Below are positions 4,901 to 23,941 of a stretch of DNA of 24,000 bases, one piece after another (within the stretch, counting starts at the first letter, position 1; each line of letters starts with the position of its first letter). A program made the position numbers and the translations under genes. The notes below the pieces were generated by a model that was given only the letters and a program-made list of their open reading frames with translations, searched no databases and had not been told where the DNA came from. Source of the stretch: Candidatus Woesearchaeota archaeon (GTDB lineage: Archaea > Nanobdellota > Nanobdellia > Woesearchaeales > UBA9642); NCBI GenBank assembly GCA_026002815.1, contig BPGB01000004.1, forward strand, positions 106,676 to 130,675, written 5' to 3'.

Positions 4901-5848
4901 TTATATTTTTAAACTAGTTACTTTAGAGATTCCATGTTCATTCATACTTACGCCATAAAGATTATCTGCTTCTGAGATTATTGCATCATTGTGGCTTATT
5001 ATTATATACTGTGCCTTGTTAGAATAACTCTTTATTAGTTTAGATAGTTGTTCAGAATTCTTTTTATCTAATGCAGCATCAACTTCGTCAAATATATAAA
5101 ATGGTGCAGGGCTATATTCTTGTACCGCGAATATAAATGCAATAGCGGCCATCGATTTTTCTCCACCTGATAATGATTTTATATCTAGGAATTTTGTTCC
5201 AGTTATTCTAACTTTAAGTTGTACTCCTCCATTAAATGGATCGTTAGTGTCTTCGAGTTCTAGGCTTGCTTCTCCTTTATTAGATAACGCGCCAAATATC
5301 ACTTTAAAATTATGATTGAGTATTTCATAAGTTTTCATGAACAATTCTTTCTTTTTGGAATCAATCTCATTAATCATTATAAGCACTGATTCTCTTTCTG
5401 TTTTTATTTTCTCTTTTTTCTCTATGAATGTTTTATACTCTTTTTCTATTACATCATAGATTTCAAGAGCCCTCATATTTACTGCACCAATATCAAGTAA
5501 TAGTTTCTCAAACTGTGCTATCTCTCTTAAGATCTCTGATTCTGGTTTATTATTGAATAGTTCTATTCCTTCGTATTGTTTAAATTCTTCCATCATTCCA
5601 GATAATTGTGCTCTTACTTCTGCAAGTTGAAGTGATAATATGTTCATTTTTTGTTCTATTGTTCTAGCATCTTCTTGTTTTTTACTAACTTCGGATTCTT
5701 GTTTTGCAATTTCTTCTGACAACTTGTTTCTTTTATTGAATAACTCTTTAAATTGTGCGAAGAATTTTGCCTCGGCTTTTTCTTTCTCTTCTAATATCTT
5801 TTGTTGTTCAGAAATCTTTTTTTGCAGCGTTGTTTTTTTCGTTTTCAA
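4901..5848 (-). CDS. smc: SMC chromosome segregation ATPase, C-terminal fragment (coiled coil, signature motif and Walker B head half)
   Basis: Contains LSGGEKSMAAIAFIFAVQEYSPAPFYIFDEVDAALD. The apparent start is a TTG inside the overlap with the upstream fragment, so this is not an independent gene. Confidence 0.9.
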   Translation of the reverse strand: MKTKKTTLQKKISEQQKILEEKEKAEAKFFAQFKELFNKRNKLSEEIAKQESEVSKKQEDARTIEQKMNILSLQLAEVRAQLSGMMEEFKQYEGIELFNNKPESEILREIAQFEKLLLDIGAVNMRALEIYDVIEKEYKTFIEKKEKIKTERESVLIMINEIDSKKKELFMKTYEILNHNFKVIFGALSNKGEASLELEDTNDPFNGGVQLKVRITGTKFLDIKSLSGGEKSMAAIAFIFAVQEYSPAPFYIFDEVDAALDKKNSEQLSKLIKSYSNKAQYIIISHNDAIISEADNLYGVSMNEHGISKVTSLKI

Positions 5849-11655: not shown

Positions 11656-12312
11656 ATGAATAATAATAAAAAAAGAGAATTTAGTGTCGTATGGATAATA
11701 ATTATTGTTGTCGCAATAGTTTTTATATTAGTTTTGGGAATTCTAAGAGGGGTATTTTGGAAGAGCAATCCTGAAAAAGTAAATGAGTATATAGATAGTG
11801 TAATCGACTCTGTCAAAGAGATTATTGGTGTGCAAGATTCTCCTGAACAGTTAAAGAATGATAGCATCTTGCAAAATAAATCTATTGGATCGTCAGTAGA
11901 AGAACCTCAAGATATTTCAGTTTCAGGTGGCGGAGGTGGTGGAGAATCTACTGGAGTAGTTAATGTAGTATCTAATGATGTTAATTATACACAATATAAT
12001 AATGAATCTTATGAGACCTTGGAGGAACTCTTTGATAGTGATAATCCAATGGGAGGAAGAGTTAATCTTTATGGTGTAGCTTTTCAAATATCGGGTGTTG
12101 ATATGTTTGATTATTTTTTATTTACAGATGACGATATTATAATAGAAAATCCTATAAATATGTTGCTGAATGGAGCTAATTTTCATATTAACGTATATAA
12201 TTCCATAGTTAATATTACTCCTCAAAGCATTGTGAGAGTAAAAGGAGTGGTCGTCGATTGTATTAATGGTGTTCAGGGACGTTATTGTATTAGTGCAAAT
12301 GAAATTAATTAA
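11656..12312 (+). CDS. Hypothetical membrane-anchored/secreted protein with N-terminal TM helix and Gly6 tract
   Basis: Features are the VVWIIIIVVAIVFILVLGIL anchor, the SGGGGGGEST tract (11926-11943) and a C-terminal ~110-aa domain with 2 Cys. A TTTAAATAA box lies ~26 nt upstream of the ATG. I recognised no family. Confidence 0.6.
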   Translation: MNNNKKREFSVVWIIIIVVAIVFILVLGILRGVFWKSNPEKVNEYIDSVIDSVKEIIGVQDSPEQLKNDSILQNKSIGSSVEEPQDISVSGGGGGGESTGVVNVVSNDVNYTQYNNESYETLEELFDSDNPMGGRVNLYGVAFQISGVDMFDYFLFTDDDIIIENPINMLLNGANFHINVYNSIVNITPQSIVRVKGVVVDCINGVQGRYCISANEIN

Positions 12313-13098: not shown

Positions 13099-13308
13099 AG
13101 TCTTTCTTTTAATATTTAATATTATTTTTTTTAATTATTTTATATATCTGCGATGCGTATTATTTCTTTTTTTATAATATATGATTATGTTATCTTTATA
13201 ATTGTTGATTTATATTTATGATTATTCTATGTTTATAATTATTAATCTTGTTAATATATATTAATAATTTTAGAAAAGTATATAAGATGTATGCTTTTAT
13301 TAATTCAT

Positions 13309-13476
13309 ATGGTTAAAAAGATTAACGAATTATATCAATGTGATGAGTGTAAATTGTTGTATTCTGATATTTCTTGGGCTAAAAGGTGCGAGGAATGGTG
13401 TAAAAGTAATAATTCTTGTAACTTAGAAATAATTAGGCATTCTATTAAAAAAATGAACGATTATATTGAGGAATAA
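13309..13476 (+). CDS. Small Cys-rich (putative zinc-binding) protein, 55 aa
   Basis: Sequence is MVKKINELYQCDECKLLYSDISWAKRCEEWCKSNNSCNLEI, with a CxxC plus three further Cys. The track ORF starts at 13291. A GTATATAAG box centred at ~13282 favours a leaderless start at 13309, though both starts are possible. Confidence 0.5.
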   Translation: MVKKINELYQCDECKLLYSDISWAKRCEEWCKSNNSCNLEIIRHSIKKMNDYIEE

Positions 13477-13486
13477 TATGTATTAA

Positions 13487-13610
13487 CGCCGAGGGTGGGA
13501 TTTGAACCCACAAATCCTTTCGGAACTGGATAAATGCGCGTAATGCGTGGTAATCATAAGCACGCCTGTGCTTAGCAATCCAGCGCAGTACCAGGTTGTG
13601 CCACCTCGGC
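13487..13610 (-). tRNA. tRNA-Ser(GCU) with a ~41-nt intron in the anticodon loop
   Basis: The reverse complement reads: GCCGAGG acceptor, GCA/TGC D stem, CTGGA-TTGCTA[intron]A-TCCAG anticodon arm, long variable arm TTCCGAAAGGATTT, GTGGG-TTCAAAT-CCCAC T arm, CCTCGGC, and discriminator G. The intron is about 13532-13572. The mature length is ~83 nt. Confidence 0.8.
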
Positions 13611-13759
13611 TTGTTAGTTTTATAAGGTTGTTTATTGTATTGTTTTTAGCTTTTATTCTGGTTTTTAGTGTATTATTCTGTTGTATTATTATTCTTTTTA
13701 TAAAGGTTTTTCTTATTATTTTTTTATCAAATCAAAACATTTATAAATAATATTGTATA

Positions 13760-13817
13760 TTTTTTGCTATACAAAAATATTTATAATATAGCATATGCTA
13801 TTTTTTGCTATACAAAA
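13760..13817 (+). promoter_or_regulatory. Operator/promoter-like region: 17-nt perfect direct repeat TTTTTTGCTATACAAAA x2 flanking a 14-nt perfect palindrome
   Basis: The repeats lie at 13760-13776 and 13801-13817. The palindrome ATAGCATATGCTAT lies at 13788-13801. GCTATA (13766-13771) and TATAGC (13787-13792) form an inverted pair. The region sits immediately upstream of the RHH gene. Confidence 0.4.
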
Positions 13818-13847
13818 TTACTATACAATAAATATCTATTTTTTGAA

Positions 13848-14021
13848 ATGAACGGGAAAAATAAGAAATCAACGGAACAATTCAATATAAGAATGCCCAA
13901 AGAACTTCTTGAAGATATAGATGAGATATCAAGAATTTTGAGAGTTAATAAATCAGAGTGGATAAAAATAAAGCTTTCGGAAATAGTTTATGAAGAAAAA
14001 AATCGTTTAAAGAAAAAATGA
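13848..14021 (+). CDS. Ribbon-helix-helix (CopG/Arc/MetJ-type) DNA-binding protein, 57 aa
   Basis: QFNIRMPKELLEDIDEISRILRVNKSEWIKIKLSEIV fits the beta-strand/helix/helix RHH pattern. The track ORF begins at 13764 but its first 28 codons are AT-rich junk. The stop overlaps the next start (ATGA at 14018-14021). Confidence 0.65.
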   Translation: MNGKNKKSTEQFNIRMPKELLEDIDEISRILRVNKSEWIKIKLSEIVYEEKNRLKKK

Positions 14022-15892
14022 ATGAAAGAAAAATTTTGGAATTTGCAGTATACTTATTATTATTAATAAATATATTGTCATTTATATATTTGCAATTCGA
14101 AATATCAAATATTGTAGATAAAAAAACACCAACAGCTATGGCTCTTGGAAGAAGCTATATATGTGTAAATCATGCACCGAACGACATAGATGTTGGAACA
14201 TGTAATTTTACAATGCCATGGGGTATAGATATAAATTGTACGGTTAATGCCACCGATCCAGATAATGATAGTATATATTACTATTCATACTTTGTATCAC
14301 CAGAAAATCTATTCACAATAAACTCATCAGGACAAATAAATGTTAATCTTCCTAGAACTGCAATAGGAAATCATACAATAAGAATAACTAGCGCAGATTT
14401 AAGCGGTTGTGACAATAATGTTTATTTTGAAGATTTCAACATAGAAGTATATCATATAAATCATGCACCCTACCTTTATCAAATAATACCCAATAGAAGC
14501 CTTTTATGGGACACTGTTTTCGTGTTCTATCTTAACGATTATTTCAGAGATATAGATGAGGATAATATGACATATCTATTATCTCAGGAAGATAATTTAA
14601 CATCTATAAATATTGTTGATGATTTGGTAACAATAAGGGGGGTAAATTGCGGAGAATCAAGATTCTTTTTCATAGCATCAGATCCTGAAGGTTTAACCGC
14701 AACCAGTAACATTGTGACATACACCATAGTTGGTTGTCCCATAATTTCAGGAAATAATGAAAATGCTGGCAGAGGAGGTGGCGGTGGCGGTGGAAGTTAT
14801 TCAGAATGCATCCCTGATTGGAGATGCTCAAAATGGTCGGAATGCCAGGAAAATGGAACGAGACAATTAAGATGTATAGATTATAATGGGTGTAATCCTA
14901 ATAATTATATAAAATATTTTACAGAGAATTGTACTTATATACCCGAAGAAGTATTATGCGAGGAAAAATGGGAATGTACCGAATGGAGTTTATGTATAAA
15001 TCAGACACATACAAGAACATGTGTTGATAAGAATGAGTGTGGAACAGAAAAAAATAAACCTGCAGAAACAGAATCATGCACACCTATACCTTCATGTTTC
15101 AATGGAATACAAGACGGAGATGAAACAGGAGTTGATTGCGGGGGTCCTTGCGGTGCATGTAAGAGCATAGAACAACCATTACAAGCAGGAGGAATAGATA
15201 ATAGACTAATACTAGCAGCTATAATACTAGTTGCCTCATTAACAATAGTAATACTTTCAGTGAAAAAACAATTGAAAGAGTTTATAGATAAAATAATCGC
15301 TTTATCAAGAAGAAAAAAACAGCCTACTTACATAACCGAACATCAGAAACAGAAATTACTAAACATATTATTTAAATTACAGGATGATATCAATAACGAA
15401 GAAACCAAAGAATTCCAATATTATATTAACCAGTTAGTAAACTTATTTTTTGTAGAACTTTTAGGTTTAGAAATAGTAAATTATGAAAAAGTAAAATTAT
15501 CAATCAAAAAAATTAAGAATAAGCAATTAGAGGATATGCTATTAGACTTTTACAAGAATATGAATTCATTAAAATTGAAAGGAAAAAACCATATACAAGA
15601 GGTAATTGATAGTATCTCAGATCATATATATTTAATATCAGAATTTCATGATAAAGATGCTTTAGTGTTGCCCAAAGAAAGAGAAATCAATGCCGAGGGA
15701 ATTGACAGATTTTACCAAAAATTATCTAATATTCACATAGCGCTTGAATTCAAGGAAATTTTAGAGGCAAAAAATTTATATAAGGAGTTATTAGATGAAT
15801 ATAATAGATTAAGTCATGAAAAGAAAGCCGAACTATATGATGAAATGATGACTGTATATAATATAATATTATATTTAGATAGGTTTTATTAA
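14018..15892 (+). CDS. Bitopic membrane protein: cadherin-like repeats, Gly7 hinge, Cys/Trp-rich repeats, TM helix and a ~210-aa helical cytoplasmic tail
   Basis: The N-terminal anchor is FAVYLLLLINILSFIYL. Repeat boundaries are VNHAPND and INHAPYL, followed by GRGGGGGGGSY. Two C-x2-W-x-C-x2-W-S-x-C units and CFNGIQDGDETGVDCGGPCGAC follow. The TM helix is LILAAIILVASLTIVILSV (~15206-15262). Confidence 0.85.
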   Translation: MNERKILEFAVYLLLLINILSFIYLQFEISNIVDKKTPTAMALGRSYICVNHAPNDIDVGTCNFTMPWGIDINCTVNATDPDNDSIYYYSYFVSPENLFTINSSGQINVNLPRTAIGNHTIRITSADLSGCDNNVYFEDFNIEVYHINHAPYLYQIIPNRSLLWDTVFVFYLNDYFRDIDEDNMTYLLSQEDNLTSINIVDDLVTIRGVNCGESRFFFIASDPEGLTATSNIVTYTIVGCPIISGNNENAGRGGGGGGGSYSECIPDWRCSKWSECQENGTRQLRCIDYNGCNPNNYIKYFTENCTYIPEEVLCEEKWECTEWSLCINQTHTRTCVDKNECGTEKNKPAETESCTPIPSCFNGIQDGDETGVDCGGPCGACKSIEQPLQAGGIDNRLILAAIILVASLTIVILSVKKQLKEFIDKIIALSRRKKQPTYITEHQKQKLLNILFKLQDDINNEETKEFQYYINQLVNLFFVELLGLEIVNYEKVKLSIKKIKNKQLEDMLLDFYKNMNSLKLKGKNHIQEVIDSISDHIYLISEFHDKDALVLPKEREINAEGIDRFYQKLSNIHIALEFKEILEAKNLYKELLDEYNRLSHEKKAELYDEMMTVYNIILYLDRFY

Positions 15893-15941
15893 AAGTAATA
15901 ATAATAAAAATACTAATAACAAAAGTACTAATAAAAATAAA

Positions 15942-18900
15942 ATGTTAAAAAATAAAATAATAAAATCAGAATTTAAAAAAATAAAAATAGGGCGAAATTT
16001 ATGGCGGAACTTAATAAAAAGTATCATATTAGTTATATTTATATTATTATCATTATTGACTTCTTTGTTCTATGTTTCAGGATTATTCATAAACAATCCA
16101 GAAATAAATCCTGGAATTACCACTATATACACTGATCAAGATCTTGAATGTAGATGGATGATAGATGTTAGCACAGAATCCAATGTTACTTGGTATGTAA
16201 ATAATGTTGTTAATAAAACATATAGTAGAATGTGTAATGCAGGCATTGAATGTTTAACAGAGGGAGCAGGTAATATACCTCAATCATTAACAGTAAAAGG
16301 CCAGTCATGGACTTGTTCAGTTGTTTATTTTAATGGCACTAGCTTAGAGGAAAAGAATGATACAATAACAATTCAAGATTCAGTTCCTACCATTCCTTTG
16401 ATTTATTTTGAAAACGGTACACAAATAAATAATGGAACAATAGTTGAAATATCTGAAGATAGCACTACAATGTTTATATTAAATTCTACTGATGCAGATA
16501 ATGATGTTATAATATATACTCTTCAGTCAAATACTGCTAATTGTTCTATAAATCCAGTAACAGGTTATATAACATGTATGCCTTATGATGAATCGCATGT
16601 TGGATTGAAAGAACTTCGCTTTAGATCTGAAGACTCAATTAGTGGTGCGACTAGGGGATATGTTAATTTAACATTGAATGTAACCCCAAATAATGATCCT
16701 CCTTATTTTAGTCCAGCACTAACATATCAGCACGTTTATGAGGGTCAGCCTTTAAATTATGTAATACACGGTTCTGATCCTGAAAATGACGTTCCTTTTA
16801 CTTTCTTCATACAGTCTGATCTTTCTAGTCTAATTATAGTACAGTTGAACAGCACATCTGCTGAAATAAGGTTCAACAATTCTGGAATGAATTTAGCACA
16901 GTTTAACGATAAAGGAAATCACACTATTACGGTGATAATAAATGATTCAGGAACTCCTATAAGAGGAAACCAATCAAGCTTTATATTAGAAGTAACTCCT
17001 ATAAATCACAAGCCAAATATGACTATAACTGTTATAAATCCAGATAGTTTAATACAAGGAAGTTCTCTTACAATATTAGTTAACGCTACAGATTTAGATA
17101 ATGATACAATAACATTTTCTACGAGTAATATCCAATTATATAATATTACATACAGTTCAACAAATAAGTCTGATCCCAGTGGCGTAAGTTTTGCAAATGC
17201 AACAATTCATGTTGATGTATTAACAAATGATCATGTAATCAATCGTAATATTACAATATCTGCATTCGATGGAAAAGAAAATTATTCTATCAATATTCTT
17301 TTAAATATAACTAATGTGAATGATGCGCCGATTATTCATGATATAAGTACTGCTCCTATTAACACTTTAAATAATTCTAATATAAGTAATCTTACTGCAT
17401 ATACAGGGGTTCTTTTTAGATATGCTGTTAATGCAACTGATATAGACAAATTAACATACGCAGGCGATAATCTAACATATTATTCGAATGATACTAATTT
17501 TAATATAGATAATGTCTCTGGAGTTTTAAGCTTTATAAGTAATCAAGTAGGAACATACTATGTTAGTATAAATGTAACAGATTCTGGTGGTTTATCTGAT
17601 GAAAAGACGGCAATAATAAACATATATCCAAATACAAACCCTTATTTTAATGGATCACTAGTATTTAATTGTGCAGAATATGATCCTGACAATTATCCTT
17701 TTAATTGTTCATTAAACTTGAGTAATTATGTTGGAGATGCAGATTTAGGAGACTATGTTAGTAACTTTTGGACTAATAGCACAATATTTTCAATAAATGA
17801 ATCTACAGGAATAATAAGTTTTGTCGCAAATCAATCCATGTTAGGAAATTATTCAATATTAGTTAATATCACAGATTCAAGAGGAGGAATGAATAGCACT
17901 ATAATGCAGTTATTGATAAACAATACAAACAATAAGCCAGTAATGGTAGAAACTTCTGCACCCTCTGGAAGAATAATTGTTGGAGATTCATATACTTATG
18001 GAATAATTGCAAATGATTCAGACTTATACCTTAATAATTCTTACGAAAATTTATCATTTAATTATTCTGTGGTAGGTCCGAACGCATCTATATTTTCTAT
18101 AGAAAAAGTTTCAGACAATAGTGCTGTTTTAAGAATAAATCCAACAACACCTCAACACGCAGGAAGTTATAATGTAACAATAACTGTTTATGATTATTAT
18201 AATAACATGACTAATACAACAATAAATATTTTTGTTTATAACATTACCTCACCTCCAAATATAACTATGATAACTCCATTCGGAACACCTATAAATTCTG
18301 ATTCTGTAAATACTTCTTGGATTAATACCTCACAAGTAGGATTAAACACCACAATAACAATATATGAGAATACAACATATTTATTTAATCATACAACAAC
18401 ATATGATATTTCTTATCCAAATTTTTTAAACTACAAATGGTATTATGATGGTTCTTTAGTAGGGACTTCTTATGAGTATAGCAAATATTTTGATTTCTTT
18501 TCATCAGGAAATCATAACATAACACTAATAGTAACAGATGATTTCAACAAGAGCGCATCGTTTAATTGGAATATAGTTATTATAAATGTTAATAGGCCTG
18601 TTGTTTTAATTAATCCGTTAACTAATTTAACAGGTCTTAATGCTGTTAATGGGACAACAACATATTCAAATTATATGACGTATTATTCTTCTCAAGTAAA
18701 ATTTTATGATCCTGACGATGATATTAATACTAATGGGGTTGTTGAAAGTAGCGAGAACACTATAATTTACTCAGTGACAAGCTGTCCATATGCAGCATTT
18801 ACTTTCATAAATAATTCTTTAAAAGTTCAGAGTTTAAGTATTGGCAGTTGTATTGTGAATTTTACTGCAACAGATTCAATGAATAATTCAATAAATGTAA

Positions 18901-19700
18901 CTTCCTATGATGTATTAGTAAATGTTACATATGTAAGTAATGAAACAATACCACAGGTTGTGCCAGTAACAAATCGTGGAGGAGGTGGTGGAGCAAGCAG
19001 AACTGTAACTATTCCCATACCAGAAGAAATAGAGAAACCTAAACCCTTAGAAATAATAACTCCAAAATTAGTTACCATATACAGAAATGCCACAGTCGTT
19101 GTTCCTATTGTTTTAAACAATACATGGAATGATACTCTAGAGGGAGTAACGTTAACTGCTCAAACAAATGCAAGTAATGTTTCAATATCATTAGACAGAA
19201 CATATTTTTCAAGAATCTTTAAGAATAAAACAGAAGAAGTAACATTAACTATAAGTAATTACAAGAGCGAAGGACATTATGAAATACAAGTTAAGGCGAA
19301 TGTTGTAAATCCAGATTTTACTGATACAGCAACAATATATGTTAATTCTGCAGACACTAGTTCAGAAGGGGAAACATTAGATACTAAGATAAGTTTTGCA
19401 AGAGATTTGTTAAGCAGTAATCCTGAATGTCAAGAATTAACAGAATTATTAAATCAAGCCAAGAGGGAATTATCGTTAAATAATTATGAGGGAACAGCCA
19501 AACTAGTTGATAGTGTTATTAATGGATGTAAATACTTAGTTAGTTCTAAATCACAAGTAGAAAAGCCAAGCAGAGATGTTATAAAAAGATTTGTGTGGAA
19601 AGAAAAATATAACGAGTATATCGTAGTTGGAGTGTTTGTAGTTCTATTTTTTGCTGCATTAGTATATATTATTAGAAGAGATAAAGAGCAAGAAGTGTGA
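15942..19700 (+). CDS. Giant (1252 aa) surface protein: N-terminal signal/anchor, ~8-10 cadherin/Ig-like repeats, Gly5 hinge, S-layer/CARDB-like domain and C-terminal TM anchor
   Basis: The N-terminal anchor is SIILVIFILLSLLTSLFYV. Repeat linkers are NNDPPYF, INHKPNM, VNDAPIIH, NTNPYFNG and NNKPVMV, followed by NRGGGGGASRT. The C-terminus is YIVVGVFVVLFFAALVYIIRRDKEQEV. My manual count gives roughly 70 N-x-S/T sequons. Confidence 0.9.
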   Translation: MLKNKIIKSEFKKIKIGRNLWRNLIKSIILVIFILLSLLTSLFYVSGLFINNPEINPGITTIYTDQDLECRWMIDVSTESNVTWYVNNVVNKTYSRMCNAGIECLTEGAGNIPQSLTVKGQSWTCSVVYFNGTSLEEKNDTITIQDSVPTIPLIYFENGTQINNGTIVEISEDSTTMFILNSTDADNDVIIYTLQSNTANCSINPVTGYITCMPYDESHVGLKELRFRSEDSISGATRGYVNLTLNVTPNNDPPYFSPALTYQHVYEGQPLNYVIHGSDPENDVPFTFFIQSDLSSLIIVQLNSTSAEIRFNNSGMNLAQFNDKGNHTITVIINDSGTPIRGNQSSFILEVTPINHKPNMTITVINPDSLIQGSSLTILVNATDLDNDTITFSTSNIQLYNITYSSTNKSDPSGVSFANATIHVDVLTNDHVINRNITISAFDGKENYSINILLNITNVNDAPIIHDISTAPINTLNNSNISNLTAYTGVLFRYAVNATDIDKLTYAGDNLTYYSNDTNFNIDNVSGVLSFISNQVGTYYVSINVTDSGGLSDEKTAIINIYPNTNPYFNGSLVFNCAEYDPDNYPFNCSLNLSNYVGDADLGDYVSNFWTNSTIFSINESTGIISFVANQSMLGNYSILVNITDSRGGMNSTIMQLLINNTNNKPVMVETSAPSGRIIVGDSYTYGIIANDSDLYLNNSYENLSFNYSVVGPNASIFSIEKVSDNSAVLRINPTTPQHAGSYNVTITVYDYYNNMTNTTINIFVYNITSPPNITMITPFGTPINSDSVNTSWINTSQVGLNTTITIYENTTYLFNHTTTYDISYPNFLNYKWYYDGSLVGTSYEYSKYFDFFSSGNHNITLIVTDDFNKSASFNWNIVIINVNRPVVLINPLTNLTGLNAVNGTTTYSNYMTYYSSQVKFYDPDDDINTNGVVESSENTIIYSVTSCPYAAFTFINNSLKVQSLSIGSCIVNFTATDSMNNSINVTSYDVLVNVTYVSNETIPQVVPVTNRGGGGGASRTVTIPIPEEIEKPKPLEIITPKLVTIYRNATVVVPIVLNNTWNDTLEGVTLTAQTNASNVSISLDRTYFSRIFKNKTEEVTLTISNYKSEGHYEIQVKANVVNPDFTDTATIYVNSADTSSEGETLDTKISFARDLLSSNPECQELTELLNQAKRELSLNNYEGTAKLVDSVINGCKYLVSSKSQVEKPSRDVIKRFVWKEKYNEYIVVGVFVVLFFAALVYIIRRDKEQEV

Positions 19701-19702
19701 AA

Positions 19703-19722
19703 TTTTTATTACCTGTTTTTTT
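19703..19722 (+). terminator. Oligo-T tracts (T5, T7) after the giant gene: putative archaeal intrinsic terminator
   Basis: TTTTT at 19703-19707 and TTTTTTT at 19716-19722. These are not distinctive in this AT-rich background. Confidence 0.25.
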
Positions 19723-19827
19723 AATATATTATTACTTGTTTTTCTTTTAATATATCTTTTTTTACGATTTATTTTATGTTTTTTTTTAATATTTTTTATT
19801 TTTAATGTTTTTTAATATTTCATAATA

Positions 19828-20355
19828 TTACTTTTTGGAGATTATTTTATTATATAAATCGTAAAGTGTTATATATATTTTGGTTTTTTTATCATAATCA
19901 AAACTATCATATAAGGAAAGAGCTCTTAAATAAAATATTTTTGAAGTTTCTATTTTGCCAGAATATAAATATTCATAAGACATCTCTATATATTCTTTTA
20001 TTTTTATAATCTCAGGATCATCATCTTCTAAAATTATTGAATTTTTGTTATACCCTCTCTCACCATATTTATTATACTCTTGATTTGTAAGTGTTTCTTT
20101 TTTTTCTTCAACTTCATCTTCTGATGCAAGGAACAGATTATTTGAAAATTCTGAGTCAACGTTCAATGTATTTGTTTTAGTACTTTTTCTGGATTCTGTT
20201 ATGAATTCTTTTTGGAGTTCTTCTTTCATTAATTCATTATTTTCCTTTACTGATTCAATATTTAATTTTGGCAACGCATCTTCTTCTATTTTTTCTGTAT
20301 GGTTTTTTTTGGGTGTTTTCTTTATTTTTTCCCCTTTTTCCAAATATTTTTTCAA
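19828..20355 (-). CDS. Hypothetical K/E-rich protein, C-terminal fragment; paralogue of the 624-aa protein's tail end
   Basis: The apparent start is a TTG inside a 101-nt overlap with the upstream ORF. The C-terminus SKIFYLRALSLYDSFDYDKKTKIYITLYDLYNKI resembles AKNLYKELLDEYNRLSHEKKAELYDEMMTVYNII at the end of the 624-aa protein. Confidence 0.6.
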   Translation of the reverse strand: MKKYLEKGEKIKKTPKKNHTEKIEEDALPKLNIESVKENNELMKEELQKEFITESRKSTKTNTLNVDSEFSNNLFLASEDEVEEKKETLTNQEYNKYGERGYNKNSIILEDDDPEIIKIKEYIEMSYEYLYSGKIETSKIFYLRALSLYDSFDYDKKTKIYITLYDLYNKIISKK

Positions 20356-20728
20356 AAAAAGATACTTTAGATTCTTTTTCCAGGTCTATTATTAATTGAG
20401 ATATTAAATCTTTAAAATCGTTAAGTATTCTTTTCTTTTCTTCATTACTCAATTCATGATCAGAATTATATTCTAGAAGAGATAAGTCTTCTAACATTTT
20501 ATCTATTCTTTTTTTCAATGCCTGTTTAATGAATATTTTATTTAATTCTTGACTTAGTTCTTCGTATGTGAACTCGTATTCAAGTTTAAGAAAGTCTGCA
20601 AAAAATTTTCTTATTAAGGAGTATAGCTCTTTATCAGATATCTCTTTATCAATAATTGAAGATATCTTTTCAGAATATACTTTTTTTATATTACTTCTTC
20701 TCTCTAACTCTGACACCTCTTTTTCCAT
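20255..20728 (-). CDS. Hypothetical helical protein, N-terminal fragment; paralogue of the 624-aa protein's tail start
   Basis: KELYSLIRKFFADFLKLEYEFTYEELSQELNKI...IDKMLEDLSLLEY resembles KEFQYYINQLVNLFFVELLGLEIVNYEKVKLSIKKI...LEDMLLDFYKNM in the 624-aa tail. The last ~30 codons (GKRGKNKENTQKKPYRKNRRRCVAKIKY) look out of frame. Confidence 0.6.
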   Translation of the reverse strand: MEKEVSELERRSNIKKVYSEKISSIIDKEISDKELYSLIRKFFADFLKLEYEFTYEELSQELNKIFIKQALKKRIDKMLEDLSLLEYNSDHELSNEEKKRILNDFKDLISQLIIDLEKESKVSFFEKIFGKRGKNKENTQKKPYRKNRRRCVAKIKY

Positions 20729-20793
20729 AATAAAAATACCAATTAATATATATATAAATTTTGTTATTTTGGCTAAATTGTTTTTTATTTTTA

Positions 20794-20856
20794 CTTATAT
20801 TTTTATTTATACTGCTTATATTTTTATTTATACTGCTTATATTTTTATTTATATTA
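20794..20856. repeat. 21-bp tandem repeat x3 (CTTATATTTTTATTTATACTG)
   Basis: Units 20794-20814 and 20815-20835 are identical. Unit 20836-20856 differs in its last 3 nt. The array lies in the divergent intergenic region between 20728 (-) and 21001 (+). Confidence 0.95.
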
Positions 20857-21000
20857 TTTATATTATTTTTATTTTATATTATTTATATTATTTTATGTGT
20901 TATTATGTTATTTGGTAATCCATAAACTGTATTAAAAAAGAATTAAAAACAAAATATATTTAAATAACAATAGTCAATAGTCTTAAAAAAGAGGTGTTTG

Positions 21001-22011
21001 ATGCATTCTGACTATAGTAGGCCTACAAAGGATAAAGAATTTGATGAGCTTTTAAAAAAGTATAGTTTACAATTTAAGATTATAAAAGAGGAAATGGCAA
21101 AAGTCATAGTAGGTCAGACAGAAATAATAAACAGTTTAATAGAAGCATTATTATGTAATGGTCATGTTTTAGTTGAGGGTGTTCCAGGAATAGCAAAGAC
21201 TATGACTGTAAGGACTCTTTCTACAATAACAGGAGGTCAGTTTTCAAGAATTCAATTTACTCCTGATTTGCTTCCTACAGACATTATAGGAATAACCACT
21301 TATGAAGAGGGCAGAGGATTCTATTCTGTTAAAGGACCTATATTTGCTAATTTTGTTCTTGCAGATGAGATAAATAGGGCCCCTCCAAAAGTACAGTCTG
21401 CCCTTTTAGAAGCAATGCAGGAACGTCAAGTAACTATAGGAAAAGAATCTTTCGCATTACCAAACCCTTTTTTCGTAATGGCAACACAGAATCCAATAGA
21501 GAGTTTGGGAACCTATAAACTGCCAGAAGCTCAGATAGATAGATTTATGTTCAAGCTTCAAATGAATTATCCTAATATTGAAGATGAATTAAAAATACTC
21601 CATCAGAATGTCACATTAAAAAGGTTTGAGGACTTTAAACTAAATGTCGTTATTAATCCTGAAACAATATTGAAAGCACAGCAAGATGTTAAAAGAATAT
21701 ATTTAGATAAAAAAGTAGAGAAGTACATAGTAAGCATTGTAGAATCAACAAGGAATCCTGAAAAGTATAAACTTGAGACAGGAAAATTCATAGAATATGG
21801 AACTTCTCCAAGGTCAAGTATTGCTTTATTTATAGCCTCGAAGGCCCATGCACTAGTCAAGGGTAAAGGTTTTGTAACTCCTATGGATGTAAAAGAGGTT
21901 GCACACAATGTTCTTAGACATAGAATAATATTAAATTATGAAGGTCAAGCAGAAGAGATATCTACTGATAAGATAATAGATGAAATACTTAAAAAAGTTC
22001 CTATTGAGTGA
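21001..22011 (+). CDS. MoxR-family AAA+ ATPase
   Basis: Walker A is EGVPGIAKT and Walker B is FVLADEINRAPPKVQSALLEAMQE, followed by VMATQNPIE..G.Y.LPEAQIDRF. The ATG at 21001 is preceded by GAGGTG; the track begins at TTG 20998. Confidence 0.95.
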   Translation: MHSDYSRPTKDKEFDELLKKYSLQFKIIKEEMAKVIVGQTEIINSLIEALLCNGHVLVEGVPGIAKTMTVRTLSTITGGQFSRIQFTPDLLPTDIIGITTYEEGRGFYSVKGPIFANFVLADEINRAPPKVQSALLEAMQERQVTIGKESFALPNPFFVMATQNPIESLGTYKLPEAQIDRFMFKLQMNYPNIEDELKILHQNVTLKRFEDFKLNVVINPETILKAQQDVKRIYLDKKVEKYIVSIVESTRNPEKYKLETGKFIEYGTSPRSSIALFIASKAHALVKGKGFVTPMDVKEVAHNVLRHRIILNYEGQAEEISTDKIIDEILKKVPIE

Positions 22012-22328
22012 GTTCTAAAATGCCAATAAACAAATTTGAAGCAGAACTTCTTCCTAAGATAAGGAAATTAGATGTATATGCAAAACAACAAGCTTTAAGT
22101 GAAGTAATAGAAGGAAACTGGACAACAACCTTTAAGGGTCATGGAATGGAGTTTTCTGGTTATAGAACCTATCAATATGGGGATGATGCTAGTTTAATCG
22201 ATTGGAAGGCGTCTTTAAGGTCTAAAAGTTTGCTCGTTAAAGAATATGAGCAAGAAAAAAGTGTTAATGTATTTTTCTTATTTGATGTAAGCAATAGTAT
22301 TGGTTGTTCAGTTCAACAAGAAAATTAA
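22008..22328 (+). pseudogene. DUF58 domain protein, fragment 1 of 3 (frameshifted)
   Basis: Contains GHGMEFSGYRTYQYGDDASLIDWKASLRSKSLLVKEYEQEKSVNVFFLFDVSNS, the DUF58 core. The family sequence then continues in another frame. Confidence 0.8.
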
Positions 22329-22433
22329 AAGCAGAATTTGGCGCAGAATTGGTTTCAAGTTTAGCATTCGCAATATTAAGAAGTGGTGATGCTGTTGGTT
22401 TAAGTATGGTTCACTGATAGATTAGTAACCAGA

Positions 22434-22676
22434 ATGCCTTTAAATGTTGGAAGAAAAATGCACTATATGATTGTTAAAGACTTGAGTAATGTTAATAATT
22501 ATGGCGGAAACTTTGATTTTGGAAGATCACTTAACTTATTATTCTCTTTCTTAAAGATGCGTGCGGTAATAATTATTATTTCAGACTTTATAGGACTAAG
22601 TGAAAATTGGTATAAATATCTAAGAATAGCATCACAAAAATACGAGGTTATAGGTATAATGGTTAGAGATCCCTAG
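22434..22676 (+). pseudogene. DUF58 domain protein, fragment 2 of 3
   Basis: Contains RAVIIIISDFIGLSENWYKYLRIASQKYEVIGIMVRDP, the typical DUF58 SDF...h.V.DP block. The open frame extends upstream to VWFTDRLVTR. Confidence 0.8.
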
Positions 22677-22710
22677 AGACAGACGCCTTCCTGAAGAATT
22701 AGGACAATAT

Positions 22711-22920
22711 ATGCTTGAAGATCCTTACACTGGAGAGAGAATATATATTGATACAAAAAGGTATTCAAAAGCATATGAAGAATATGTTGCTAAGGAAGAA
22801 GCCGAAATAGAAAAACATTTTAAGGCAACAAAATCAGATTTATTAAAATTAGATACTAGCAAAGACTTTTATAAAGATGTAATGACTTTTTTCAAGAGAA
22901 GAGCATTAACACATAGGTAA
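22711..22920 (+). pseudogene. DUF58 domain protein, fragment 3 of 3
   Basis: The frame is open from IPRDRRLPEELGQYMLEDPYTGERIYIDT, which is the DUF58 P-x-E-x-x-LP-x-x-G...D-x-E-T-G block. Confidence 0.8.
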
Positions 22921-22984
22921 GTTAGTTTATTAGATGGTTATTAATCGTTTATTTTATTAGAAGGTTATTTTATTAGGTGGTTTA

Positions 22985-23941
22985 ATGTATTTAACATTTG
23001 ATAATCCGGAATATTTATGGTACCTTTTTAGTATTCCTGTTCTAATAGTTAGTCATTATGCTTTCTTGAAGTATAGTAGAAGAAGGGCAATTCGTTTTGC
23101 AAATTTTGAAGCATTAAAGAAAGTGACTAATCAGAGTATAATGACTAAAAATAATACAATTTTGCTTATTAGAATGGTAATATTGTTCTTTTTAATTCTT
23201 GCAATAGCCGGAACTAAGTTATGGTATGAGGGATATACTAACGAGAATGATTTCGTAATAGCAATAGATACTAGCTCCTCAATGTCCTCAGCAGATTTGA
23301 AACCAAACAGGCTTGATGCTTCAAAAGCATATGCAAAAGAATTCACTAATAGAATAGGTTTAGATTCTCAAATAGGTTTAATATCTTTTTCAGGAGCATC
23401 ATTCGTTGAGAGGGTTCCAACTAGAAATAAAGAATTTGTAAAATCTGCTATAGATAATATTGATTTCGCTCATGTTGGTGGAACAAACATTCCTGATGCA
23501 CTAGTTACAGGTACAAATCTGCTTCTCTCTTCAGAAAAGGGTAGAACTTTAATATTATTATCTGATGGAAGCAATACTGCATCTTATTTTATAAAGGATC
23601 CAATAGGAGAGGGAATAAAATATGCACAGAACAATAATGTAAAGGTTTATACTATCGGTGTAGGTAGCGATACTGGTCCTATAGGATATCTTCCCGAATA
23701 TTATAACATAAGCGCAGTTTATGATGAAAATACTTTACTCAGAATTGCTAATGAAACGGGCGGAAAATATTATGATGCAAAAAACAATGACCAATTAAGA
23801 GCGGCATTTGATGATATAGCAGCTGCAAGTAATGAGGCTTTCATAAGCATCGACCTAGGACCTGGTTTATTAATTATTACATTAGCATTATTATTCTTAG
23901 AATGGGGCTTAATATCTACAAGATTCAGAGCATTACCATAA
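22985..23941 (+). CDS. VWA domain membrane protein (BatA-like)
   Basis: An N-terminal TM pair (YLFSIPVLIVSHYAF and LIRMVILFFLILAIAG) is present. The MIDAS motif is AIDTSSSMS, followed by GGTNIPDAL and LILLSDGSNT. A C-terminal TM helix and an AGGTGG SD are also present. Confidence 0.9.
   Translation: MYLTFDNPEYLWYLFSIPVLIVSHYAFLKYSRRRAIRFANFEALKKVTNQSIMTKNNTILLIRMVILFFLILAIAGTKLWYEGYTNENDFVIAIDTSSSMSSADLKPNRLDASKAYAKEFTNRIGLDSQIGLISFSGASFVERVPTRNKEFVKSAIDNIDFAHVGGTNIPDALVTGTNLLLSSEKGRTLILLSDGSNTASYFIKDPIGEGIKYAQNNNVKVYTIGVGSDTGPIGYLPEYYNISAVYDENTLLRIANETGGKYYDAKNNDQLRAAFDDIAAASNEAFISIDLGPGLLIITLALLFLEWGLISTRFRALP

Follow-up and report, generated by a model that had tools for sequence, protein, structure and literature searches.

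The DNA analysed here, a 24-kb window from a Candidatus Woesearchaeota (DPANN) MAG of a tiny hot-spring archaeon, raises the question of why a gene for a 57-aa RHH-like protein should stand at the head of genes for two large membrane-anchored proteins. The answer that we favour, with a probability of about 0.6, is that positions 13734-19815 form an autorepressed three-gene operon for glycosylated cadherin-like envelope proteins.

Layout of the locus and its conservation

Three ORFs follow one another on the forward strand (KatS3mg002_0803, _0804 and _0805, Candidatus Woesearchaeota, at NCBI). They encode the RHH-like protein, the candidate autorepressor (13848-14021), a 624-aa membrane protein (14018-15892) and a 1252-aa C-terminally anchored protein (15942-19700). 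As the initial annotation had it, the TGA of the first overlaps the ATG of the second, as ATGA, and 49 nt separate the stop of the 624-aa ORF from the start of the 1252-aa ORF; this gap holds neither a TATA-like box nor a T run of six or more. The word giant, used there for both large proteins, does not suit one of 624 aa. Only three T runs of six or more occur within the 5.85-kb coding stretch, and an oligo-T cluster (7, 7, 9, 6 and 6 T; 19716-19815, forward strand) lies right behind the 1252-aa stop codon. Because such a cluster is found only there, we placed the boundary of the operon at this likely archaeal terminator.

On the other side, the intron-bearing tRNA-Ser reported beside the unit is real, but it lies on the minus strand and thus diverges from the operon (tRNA-Ser(GCU), 13487-13610, long variable arm, intron of about 41 nt; Rfam 44.7 bits, missed by ARAGORN). 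It marks the upstream boundary of the unit and is no functional part of it. Downstream, a soluble-protein gene (MEKEVSE...FFADFLKLEYEFTYEEL..., 19828-20728, minus strand, interrupted by a frameshift in a region of A/T homopolymers) converges on the trio, and it is found right behind the 1252 gene in 11 loci. The last ~60 aa of its product are homologous to the end of the cytoplasmic tail of the 624-aa protein (hhalign probability 97%, E 8.6e-11).

The order of an RHH gene, a gene for 620-680 aa and one for ~1250 aa recurs in relatives, with an orthologous RHH in 9 independent loci. The 624 and 1252 genes themselves are neighbours in 16 independent loci, at identities as low as ~23%, and 14 of these loci carry an RHH gene. 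Across loci, the RHH genes fall into three types: that of the window (type 1, 9 loci), a different RHH in the same position (type 2, 2 loci) and one in front of the 1252 gene (type 3, 5 loci). No RHH was detectable in three loci of the family (L006, L013 and L045), so that RHH control is not a fixed feature of the family. Several relatives have a separate promoter and a separate RHH pair for the 1252 gene; the single-operon layout is therefore specific to the clade of the window. The module is real and conserved, it is built from known kinds of parts, and it was not found in the literature searched. As the trio and its control site recur across related uncultured archaea, it is a good candidate for their cell-surface or host-contact machinery.

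Architecture of the two predicted surface proteins

A cadherin-like nature had been proposed for both large proteins from their repeated linkers. All six N-[DHNK]-x-P linkers quoted are present, two in the 624-aa protein (VNHAPN at residue 51, INHAPY at 148) and four in the 1252-aa protein (NNDPP at 250, INHKPN at 355, VNDAPI at 460, NNKPVM at 663), and so are the Gly hinges, as a G7 and a G5 run, respectively. The AlphaFold2 models of both proteins are chains of beta-sandwiches, for which Foldseek returned SraP cadherin-like modules, cadherin-23, protocadherin-15 and E-/N-cadherin. A cadherin-like character is supported by the predicted fold for both, and by the sequence profile for the 1252 family. 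The N-terminal hydrophobic segments described as anchors exist in both (residues ~5-30 and ~20-52), but they may be cleaved signal peptides.

The 624-aa protein, of which there are ~40 full-length homologues, starts with a signal/anchor helix (residues 2-33), followed by two cadherin-like beta-sandwich domains (~50-240; AF2 and Foldseek, pLDDT ~90), a Gly-rich linker (243-263), Cys-rich modules including SCFNGIQDGDETGVDCGGPCGAC (264-381), a TM helix (395-414, within a hydrophobic segment at 393-420) and an all-helical cytoplasmic domain of 210 aa (416-624). This last domain is found only in the 624 family: among 1.84 billion representatives it has only 21 matches, nearly all of them C-terminal in proteins of 620-780 aa. 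The ectodomain holds 22 Cys, mostly invariant, and all 12 sequons of the protein, with none in the tail.

The 1252-aa protein carries a signal/anchor (~26-46) and ~11 beta-sandwich domains (mean pLDDT 82), which are cadherin-like over ~165-790, with conserved DxD and NxNDxP positions. Beyond them come a Gly5 linker (~1000-1032), an additional beta-sandwich (~1036-1134), a helical bundle with two invariant Cys (~1142-1203) and a TM helix (~1225-1245; hydrophobic segment 1223-1248) with a short basic tail. More than 80 full-length homologues (1190-1300 aa, 27-79% identity) provided a family profile that matched solved cadherins in the PDB by sequence (CELSR1, E 3.8e-27). Pfam Cadherin, Big_9 and He_PIG matches were already precomputed on homologues, and the family alignment has invariant D/E/N/P columns at the linkers. 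Sequons for N-glycosylation number 73, as against 29 +/- 4.6 expected.

The sequon counts, together with the largely invariant ectodomain Cys of the 624-aa protein, argue for an extracytoplasmic location of both proteins, which would probably be glycosylated. Since the most conserved ectodomain residues are the acidic linker positions, the rods are probably stiffened by Ca2+. Several linkers in the proteins of the window have NH.P or NK.P in place of ND.P, and Ca2+ binding may therefore be incomplete.

Two groups of known proteins come close to this pair. The prokaryotic CHDL, Big_9 and 'tandem-95' proteins share the beta-sandwich fold, the acidic linkers and the extracellular location, and an example is given by the cadherin-like modules of Staphylococcus SraP (PDB 4m00 and 4m03; for 4m03, Foldseek E 3e-9, TMt, the TM-score normalised to the target, 0.66). 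Unlike CHDL proteins and SraP, the pair is anchored by TM helices, not by cell-wall or secretion-system signals, domain number and length are fixed within its families, one partner has a private cytoplasmic domain, and the pair comes with a dedicated regulator. Metazoan cadherins, classical or CELSR/Flamingo, have the same type I layout of signal, cadherin repeats, TM helix and cytoplasmic tail, and a tail that may bind a soluble partner, as may that of the 624-aa protein; CELSR adds the profile-level similarity given above, and it combines its repeats with EGF-like modules much as the 624-aa protein combines cadherin-like repeats with Cys-rich ones. However, the cytoplasmic domain and the Cys-rich modules of the archaeal proteins are unrelated to the metazoan ones, several linkers lack the full DxNDN, and homophilic adhesion or Ca2+ dependence would be putative in the archaeal pair.

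The RHH-like protein and its candidate operator

The mechanical ORF (13764-14021) has a TTG start and 85 codons' worth of protein (85 aa), but the start common to all homologues in the alignment is the internal ATG at 13848, which yields the 57-aa protein. Its proposed RHH identity is backed by seven RHH models (Arc, RHH_3, RHH_1, HicB-like, CopG antitoxin, aCcr1 and BrnA) that match in one register, but every match is sub-threshold: Arc, the best among Pfam and NCBIfam, reaches 20.0 bits where 20.4 are required. In the PDB, a profile search gave no match. Invariant within the family are Q11, N13 and R15 on the predicted beta-strand, where base-contacting residues of an RHH protein would be expected to lie, and NKSEWIK at the start of helix B. 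We consider the protein a candidate DNA-binding autorepressor.

The family is restricted to the 624/1252 module. Only 39 homologues were found among 5.8 billion proteins, each at least 59% identical. In all nine independent loci examined, this RHH type lies directly upstream of the 624-family gene; at least 13 homologues come from contigs of the same length as contigs with 624/1252 homologues, and the trio is present in all four additional RHH loci looked up. Within the same genomes, the RHH protein is 70-78% identical, against 35-47% and 48-56% for its neighbours.

The repeat and palindrome noted upstream of the unit are both there, in a promoter/operator region (13734-13845, forward strand) of two 41-bp tandem units (TRF: ~2.1 copies, 84% matches, score 117), each with a TATA-like box and GCTAT-type half-sites. 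The boxes are TTTATAAA (13740-13747) in the distal unit and TTTATAAT (13780-13787) in the proximal one, the palindrome ATAGCATATGCTAT occupies 13788-13801, and exact copies of TTGCTATACAA occur in the whole window only at 13764 and 13805. The proximal candidate operator reads ATAGC (13788-13792) N4 GCTAT (13797-13801) N5 GCTATAC (13807-13813), with an extra half-site, ACTATAC (13820-13826), beside it; a degenerate copy, TTGTATA (13753-13759) N6 GCTATAC (13766-13772), forms the distal one. Exact GCTAT-N5-GCTAT occurs nine times on both strands of 1.41 Mb of loci (~10-20 kb around each), and all nine occurrences lie upstream of an RHH start, within ~220 bp, mostly directly behind TTTATAAATA; in L004, L007 and L008 the motif is directly 3' of the TATA box. 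This suggests that ATAGC-N4-GCTAT-N5-GCTATAC is a conserved candidate operator private to the RHH promoter, with the 57-aa protein, by co-occurrence, as its putative ligand.

Proposed autorepression of a surface operon and its alternatives

Counted from the TATA box at 13780, transcription would start ~25 nt further downstream, and RHH dimers would bind the half-site array at 13788-13813, which covers this predicted start, as well as the second, degenerate unit 41 bp upstream. Binding might then block formation of the pre-initiation complex, as shown for the archaeal RHH protein aCcr1; it is from the position of the operator that we assume repression and not activation. As the RHH gene would be the first cistron of a common transcript and coupled in translation to the 624-aa gene by ATGA, the operon would repress itself and keep both surface proteins at a fixed level. 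Both would be exported via their N-terminal hydrophobic segments, glycosylated at their many NxS/T sequons and anchored to the membrane through their TM helices, with rods of cadherin-like repeats as ectodomains that could serve host contact or envelope structure. The 624-aa protein would expose its disulfide-rich modules outside and its 210-aa helical domain inside. Since its tail shares a C-terminal module with the convergent soluble protein, this domain may link the surface structure to a cytoplasmic partner.

Such a logic has parallels in Arc, Mnt, CopG and omega of phages and plasmids, where a small RHH gene is also the first of the unit that it controls, by negative autoregulation, through half-sites of 5-7 bp, repeated or inverted, at a spacing of about one helical turn. 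In contrast to these, the RHH gene of the window sits in the chromosome, is kept across an archaeal order, would act at an archaeal TATA/TFB promoter, and would control 5.6 kb of envelope genes, not a cassette for replication, lysogeny or toxin-antitoxin functions. That the protein is an antitoxin or the remnant of a mobile element with coincidental neighbours is a negligible prospect: the sub-threshold matches do include HicB-like, CopG antitoxin and BrnA, but a small toxin ORF is absent, with the ATGA-overlapped 624-aa gene coming next, no mobile-element genes occur in the window, and the arrangement is kept in 9 independent loci over deep divergence. Synteny effectively refutes this candidate. 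Closer in kind are two small transcription factors of archaea, aCcr1 of Sulfolobales and CdrS of Halobacteria, likewise RHH proteins of ~57 aa; CdrS is co-transcribed with the structural gene ftsZ2, an archaeal precedent for an RHH gene leading a structural-gene operon. The protein of the window differs from them in sequence family and operator sequence, and it seems to target the surface-protein operon that encodes it, not cell-division genes. It might be an activator or a broader regulator, for instance of the cell cycle like aCcr1 or CdrS, and stand before surface genes by chance. The weak aCcr1 match (E 3.3e-4), the hundreds of genomic sites bound by aCcr1 (PMC9976878) and the restriction of our motif scan to the surroundings of the loci speak for it. 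We consider this improbable, as the aCcr1 score (20.5 bits) is far from the equivalog cutoff of 60, the family is seen only with the 624/1252 module, the motif occurs nowhere else in the 1.41 Mb, and an operator at or behind the TATA box, over the predicted start, is in a repressor position.

Two further readings concern the role of the pair. It could be an S-layer, with the 1252-aa protein as lattice glycoprotein, the 624-aa protein as anchoring or organising partner and the RHH protein setting high, steady expression. The analogy would be with SlaA/SlaB of Sulfolobales, likewise two adjacent, probably co-transcribed genes, one for a heavily N-glycosylated, multi-Ig-like protein of ~1200-1400 aa, the other for a smaller partner that is anchored in the membrane and has a helical stalk. 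From 79% to 27% identity, the 1252 family hardly varies in length, and it is better conserved than the 624 family, as one would expect of a structural protein more than of a fast-evolving adhesin; its very high sequon density, multiple Ig-like domains, helical stalk and C-terminal TM anchor, and the S-layer proteins SbsB and SbsC among the fold matches, point the same way. The DPANN S-layer candidates proposed so far, none determined experimentally, are also large, Ig-like in fold and multiply glycosylated (bioRxiv 10.1101/2023.10.27.564410). We nevertheless regard this role as unlikely. In a structure-prediction survey, the S-layer protein assigned to DPANN phyla, Nanoarchaeota among them, is an orthologous beta-sandwich protein of MSTP-like type (bioRxiv 10.1101/2024.05.28.596244), and neither large protein matches that family. 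Both have their own TM anchors, unlike SlaA, and lack sequence similarity to SlaA/SlaB; the gene order differs, an RHH gene is present, and both lattice contacts and abundance would be putative. Moreover, L006 keeps a 624 gene with no adjacent 1252 gene. Less likely again is a surface appendage with the pair as base, anchor or tip. In most relatives, genes for small secreted proteins (~85 aa, one to three of ~200 aa, ~400 aa with CARDB-like domains and C-terminal TM, ~145 aa) form a cluster that directly precedes the RHH-624-1252 genes. This cluster, in which WxL-interacting-protein and CARDB domains are weakly matched, adjoins the locus upstream, in the same orientation, in L004, L006, L008, L009, L010, L011, L012, L087, L088 and L090, and in L006 its last gene ends on the first base of the 657-aa gene. 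However, a search for homology to solved pilin or fibre subunits found none, and the cluster is missing from the window, L002 and L089, where the trio is intact; on this reading, the clade of the window would have moved it elsewhere. Where the cluster is present, the RHH promoter and operator lie between it and the 624 gene, which makes them separate transcription units.

Organisation and candidate control region of the proposed operon

Our data are best read as showing an autoregulated operon, which would supply the cell envelope with two conserved glycoproteins made of cadherin-like repeats. Its layout is as the initial annotation had it: an ORF for a 57-aa ribbon-helix-helix (RHH)-like protein (ATG at 13848, end at 14021, + strand), whose TGA overlaps the ATG of a 624-aa ORF (14018-15892, +), is followed after a gap of 49 nt by a 1252-aa ORF (15942-19700, +). 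The window belongs to a Candidatus Woesearchaeota metagenome-assembled genome. The three products are entered at NCBI as KatS3mg002_0803, KatS3mg002_0804 and KatS3mg002_0805, and Logan run DRR290133 contains a contig identical to that of the window, which is AT-rich (22-33% GC). A mechanical ORF list starts the small ORF farther upstream, at TTG 13764; we retained ATG 13848 because all homologues begin there and because promoter elements overlie the TTG extension. The 49-nt gap before the 1252-aa gene holds neither a TATA-like box nor a long T run, and five T runs of 6-9 nt each lie within 100 nt past the stop codon of this gene, as against only three of such length within the 5.85 kb of coding sequence. 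These boundaries, as read from the sequence, fit a single autoregulated operon.

Phylogenetic footprinting 5' of the orthologous RHH genes revealed ATAGC-N4-GCTAT-N5-GCTATAC immediately after a TATA box (usually TTTATAAATA). In the window this candidate operator lies at 13788-13813 (+), after a TATA-like box at 13780, and the promoter-operator unit is wholly duplicated as a 41-bp tandem repeat (13734-13845), with exact copies of TTGCTATACAA at 13764 and 13805 only. The exact core GCTAT-N5-GCTAT occurs 9 times in the 1.41 Mb of compared loci (both strands counted), each time no more than about 220 bp 5' of an RHH start, and versions with one mismatch are found in two more loci. At two of the loci from relatives (L004 and L008) the TATA box stands 33-43 nt from the RHH ATG, so that the motif overlies the expected start site. 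The candidate operator, located by sequence, thus has the short repeated or inverted half-sites near the regulator's own promoter that are a trait of the RHH superfamily, and by analogy we infer that the RHH protein would negatively regulate its own operon.

The intron-bearing tRNA-Ser that had been proposed to adjoin the unit is real. It is a tRNA-Ser(GCU) gene (13487-13610, - strand) whose variable arm is long and whose intron measures about 41 nt; it is divergent from the operon and not detected in an ARAGORN run. Between this gene and the RHH promoter lies a 38-nt direct repeat (13611-13726; 71% identity, copies 78 nt apart), each copy of which contains TTTTATAA(A)GG; these repeats may serve the divergent tRNA gene as promoter elements. 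A 61-aa Cys-rich ORF (CDEC...C..WC; 13291-13476, +), located between a methyltransferase gene and the tRNA gene, has a sub-threshold match to DUF7128 (E 3.5e-4) and probably encodes a small zinc-ribbon protein.

The RHH-like protein and its association with the surface genes

The 57-aa protein scores below the cutoffs of seven curated models, namely Arc (20.0 bits, cutoff 20.4), RHH_3 (18.2, cutoff 21.6), RHH_1 (17.1, cutoff 20.5) and the HicB-like, CopG-antitoxin, aCcr1 and BrnA models, with all seven alignments in one register and the strand beginning at residues 11-14. A profile search of the PDB with the family gave zero matches, and the JGI annotation of two homologues is CopG/Arc/MetJ regulator. 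The family alignment contains an invariant Q-x-N-x-R-x-P pattern followed by two amphipathic stretches, which is compatible with a beta-strand, helix, helix fold; the invariant Q11, N13 and R15 fall on the predicted DNA-reading strand. A ribbon-helix-helix fold is likely. Membership of the aCcr1 family of cell-cycle regulators (NCBIfam NF053762; 20.5 bits, E 3.3e-4) was rejected, as an equivalog match requires 60 bits.

Among 5.8 billion proteins we found 39 homologues, each at least 59% identical, of which at least 13 are on contigs equal in size to contigs bearing homologues of the 624-aa or 1252-aa protein. Four further homologues were looked up, two of them picked because there was no such same-size contig match, and all four head the same order of genes, RHH, then a gene of 624-675 aa, then one of about 1250 aa (cut at the contig end in L089). 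Within the same genomes the RHH protein is 70-78% identical, versus 35-56% for its neighbours, and in all 9 independent loci with this RHH type the gene 3' of it encodes a 624-family membrane protein. No toxin gene adjoins it and the synteny is deeply conserved, on which grounds we discarded the possibility that it is the antitoxin of a type II toxin-antitoxin system.

We then surveyed synteny in six-frame translations of 19 independent loci, searched with family profiles. In 16 of the 19, a 624-family gene has a same-strand 1252-family gene directly 3' of it, the exceptions being L006, where other genes follow, L011, which reaches the contig end, and L017. At least one RHH gene is present in 14 of these 16 loci, and the conserved arrangement of regulator and two large genes postulated in the initial annotation recurs in independent loci. 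The initial annotation's reading, a dedicated and self-regulated surface module new to description, withstood both refuting conditions that we checked, lack of cadherin-like folds and lack of a conserved arrangement.

The regulator is not always the same one. In L016 and L025 a different, CopG-like RHH gene stands in its place and overlaps the beginning of the gene that follows, which looks like a non-orthologous replacement. These are the most distant of the loci, with large proteins of 830/1036 and 1660/1591 aa; their RHH genes (L016, 8379-8516; L025, 9736-9900) carry LLHIRVxKxMKKxMxELIDSGLF.NQAEIAREAIR. A third type, of 41-45 aa, occurs as tandem pairs directly 5' of the 1252-family gene in L004 (10210-10536), L008 (13143-13506), L009 (12062-12363), L010 (12088-12356) and L012 (12120-12376), where a TATA box and CTAAGT/ACTTAG-type repeats of its own accompany it. 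With a gap of just 49 nt at this point, the window has no counterpart. Proteins of this third type show the pattern MxNINIxIPDELHKKLK... and are FitA/ParD/HicB-like. Profile-profile comparison of the window's type (A5) with the third (A6) did not support homology (probability 6%), and the three types were thus treated as separate families. That three non-orthologous RHH types have been recruited to the same genes suggests that regulator and surface genes are functionally linked and did not come together by accident of history.

Two cadherin-like membrane proteins

The AlphaFold2 model of the 624-aa protein (24 family members, mean pLDDT 77) starts with a helix, after which come two beta-sandwich domains (residues 50-240, pLDDT ~90). 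A Gly-rich linker, which is disordered, connects these to small beta modules rich in Cys, and beyond the TM helix (residues 395-414) the model ends in an all-helical domain (residues 416-624, pLDDT ~88). That of the 1252-aa protein (residues 47-1246, 28 sequences, mean pLDDT 82) has, in order, about eleven beta-sandwich domains, a disordered Gly linker, one additional beta-sandwich, a three-helix bundle and a TM helix. Beta-sandwich repeats with the fold of cadherins, each about 100 aa long, are present (pLDDT 82-90 in these domains), and the top Foldseek matches across both models are SraP modules, cadherin-23, protocadherin-15, E-/N-/C-cadherin and protocadherins. For the 624-aa model searched against the PDB the cadherin-like modules of SraP come first (4m00, E 3.3e-9; 4m03, TMt 0.66), and then desmocollin, E- and N-cadherin, protocadherin-15 and cadherin-23; the 1252-aa model matches long proteins with many Ig domains, namely Nup210, contactins, protocadherins, classical cadherins and SbsB, an S-layer protein. 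The family profiles compared with the PDB gave a weak match for the 624 family (protocadherin-15, 4e-4) and CELSR1 (3.8e-27), cadherin-23 (1.5e-15) and protocadherin-15 (3.9e-15) for the 1252 family. The window's own sequences score under the Pfam cadherin cutoffs, and PF00028, PF17963 or PF05345 is present in many homologues. The initial annotation had called both proteins cadherin-like and had named a lack of such folds as refuting its reading; given the fold matches and the matches of the 1252-family profile to solved cadherins, the term holds at the level of both fold and sequence. The N-[DHNK]-x-P linkers, Gly runs and hydrophobic segments that it described are likewise all found, several of the window's linkers reading NH.P, NK.P or NN.P rather than the full Ca2+-binding linker motif (xEx, DxD, DxNDNxP). 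Columns that are invariant, or nearly so, in the 1252 family mostly hold D, E, N or P where repeats end (e.g., N412, N414, D415 and P417; D138, D140 and D142).

The 1252-aa protein, which has an N-terminal hydrophobic signal and a C-terminal TM helix following a helical stalk, contains 73 NxS/T sequons, versus 29 +/- 4.6 in composition-matched shuffles (z ~9.5), an excess absent from the cytoplasmic proteins of the window. All 12 sequons of the 624-aa protein are in its ectodomain and none is in its tail, and its 22 Cys residues, mostly invariant, are all in the ectodomain as well. The sequon excess and the confinement of sequons and Cys to the ectodomain are evidence for an extracytoplasmic location of both proteins.

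The 624 family counts about 40 full-length members of 620-680 aa, with identity down to 25%. The 1252 family, with more than 80 full-length members, keeps a length of 1190-1300 aa all the way from 79% to 27% identity, longer relatives being found in other DPANN groups, and is the more conserved of the two in the same genome pairs (56% vs 47%, 49% vs 35%, 48% vs 38% and 50% vs 35%). This constant length and relatively slow evolution would fit a structural or architectural role of the 1252 family better than that of a rapidly diversifying adhesin.

When all 1.84 billion representatives were searched with HMMER, the cytoplasmic tail of the 624-aa protein had 21 matches, nearly all of them C-terminal in proteins of 620-780 aa; it matched no Pfam family. 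In 11 loci a convergent gene for a soluble protein lies 3' of the 1252-family gene, and the last ~60 residues of its product match the end of the tail (hhalign probability 97%, E 8.6e-11). This shared C-terminal module is visible by profile-profile comparison only (BLASTP of the tail against the soluble protein, not significant, E 0.14). Pfam searches with isolated segments (Cys-rich region, cytoplasmic tail, C-terminal anchor region and N-terminal domain) gave nothing usable.

The Cys-rich motif SCFNGIQDGDETGVDCGGxCxxC (residues 354-381 of the 624-aa protein, 15077-15160 of the window), which no Pfam model matched there, is also found beyond archaea, with 332 relatives in a pattern scan of species genomes, mostly in large proteins from Bacteroidota, such as Saprospiraceae and Aquimarina, and also in CPR bacteria and Myxococcota. 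Most of the 80 loci returned by a locus scan with the A2 alignment, whose patterns are the motif itself, hold unrelated proteins of Bacteroidota, CPR bacteria or Myxococcota that share this motif alone.

Possible roles and genomic neighbourhood

Could these proteins form the S-layer of this archaeon? The 1252-aa protein is large and, by prediction, secreted, membrane-anchored and heavily N-glycosylated, as S-layer proteins are, and the constancy and slow evolution of its family would suit a structural protein. In a structure-prediction survey, DPANN phyla, Nanoarchaeota among them, were assigned an S-layer protein that is MSTP-like and orthologous between them (bioRxiv 10.1101/2024.05.28.596244); neither of our proteins resembles this family. 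According to a study of Nanobdella, experiments have yet to determine an S-layer protein for any DPANN archaeon (bioRxiv 10.1101/2023.10.27.564410). Moreover, each of the two carries its own TM anchors, Pfam and NCBIfam searches matched neither to S-layer families (MSTP/DUF1608-like, SlaA/SlaB, halobacterial csg), and the PDB matches of the 1252-family profile are to cadherins only, the bacterial S-layer proteins SbsB and SbsC being low-ranked fold matches. We consider an S-layer unlikely. Another alternative arises from a cluster of small secreted proteins, which could build a surface appendage, filament or complex and which directly precedes the RHH and 624-family genes in most relatives (L004, 4290-7533; L006, 4871-8001; L008, 5638-9513; L009, 5391-9896; L012, 6725-9954; also L087, L088 and L090); against it, the cluster is missing from the window, L002 and L089. 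It includes TM proteins of about 85 and 145 aa, one to three ~200-aa proteins (MDISNKTLALVLVAA...), for which sequence searches of the PDB gave nothing meaningful, and one or two of about 400 aa with a signal, a C-terminal TM segment and weak matches to CARDB and WxL-interacting proteins. A 218-aa ORF of the window (11656-12312, +) was tested as a member of the ~200-aa family and is not one; it has an N-terminal TM segment, a Gly6 run and a weak T4SS_pilin match alone, and L089 has a 220-aa gene at the equivalent position.

A putative role of the two cadherin-like proteins in host contact, as the initial annotation proposed, would be compatible with all observations. One might go further and speculate, although we hold it to be distinctly improbable, that the three genes specify a conserved trans-envelope contact apparatus of Woesearchaeota with its own regulator and cytoplasmic adaptor. 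The 1252-aa protein, as a long cadherin-like rod, would act jointly with the 624-aa protein, a shorter cadherin/Cys-rich receptor, whose private cytoplasmic domain would pair with the convergent soluble protein via the shared C-terminal module, thereby coupling surface events such as host contact to the cytoplasm, with production gated by the family-private RHH protein. MoxR-DUF58-BatA genes, which come next after the convergent gene in six loci, the window included, may take part. If true, prokaryotes would have here a system of cadherins plus cytoplasmic adaptor that is under a transcriptional switch of its own.

Woesearchaeota belong to the most widespread of the DPANN archaea. To our knowledge, cultures have not yet allowed any of them to be characterised well, none of their envelope or host-contact proteins has been defined, and no host-contact machinery is known in this lineage; a literature search for Woesearchaeota or DPANN with cadherin or adhesin found no relevant paper. 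The parts of the proposed operon, an RHH repressor and cadherin-like surface proteins of the prokaryotic sort, are each of a known kind, which makes the result useful rather than startling. What appears to be new is their conserved combination, in four respects: the RHH protein, the operator and the cytoplasmic domain are each private to the family, and the soluble partner is paralogous. It provides a candidate set of two co-inherited, membrane-anchored, predicted glycosylated cadherin-like proteins with a unique cytoplasmic domain, a candidate soluble partner and a dedicated regulator, and thus a precise, testable starting point for studying the cell envelope in an archaeal lineage that is common worldwide but uncultured. 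With its precisely predicted operator, the regulator may also be a compact, orthogonal archaeal repressor-operator unit.

The MoxR (AAA_3), DUF58 and BatA/VWA genes lie at 20998-23941 (+) in the window and are also found in L002, L009, L012, L013 and L045. Three genes, each a single ORF in the relative L002, appear in pieces in the window, either by assembly or homopolymer errors or by real pseudogenisation: SMC (4901-8432, -; 315 + 874 aa vs 1179 aa), the convergent gene (19828-20728, -; 157 + 175 aa vs 330 aa, with the break in an A/T homopolymer at ~20340-20360) and DUF58 (22008-22920, +; 106 + 80 + 69 aa vs 298 aa). The divergent intergenic region between the convergent gene and moxR contains AT-rich tandem repeats (20782-20912), among them a 21-bp unit in 3.8 copies with 91% matches (20794-20872) and overlapping periods of 24-25 bp.
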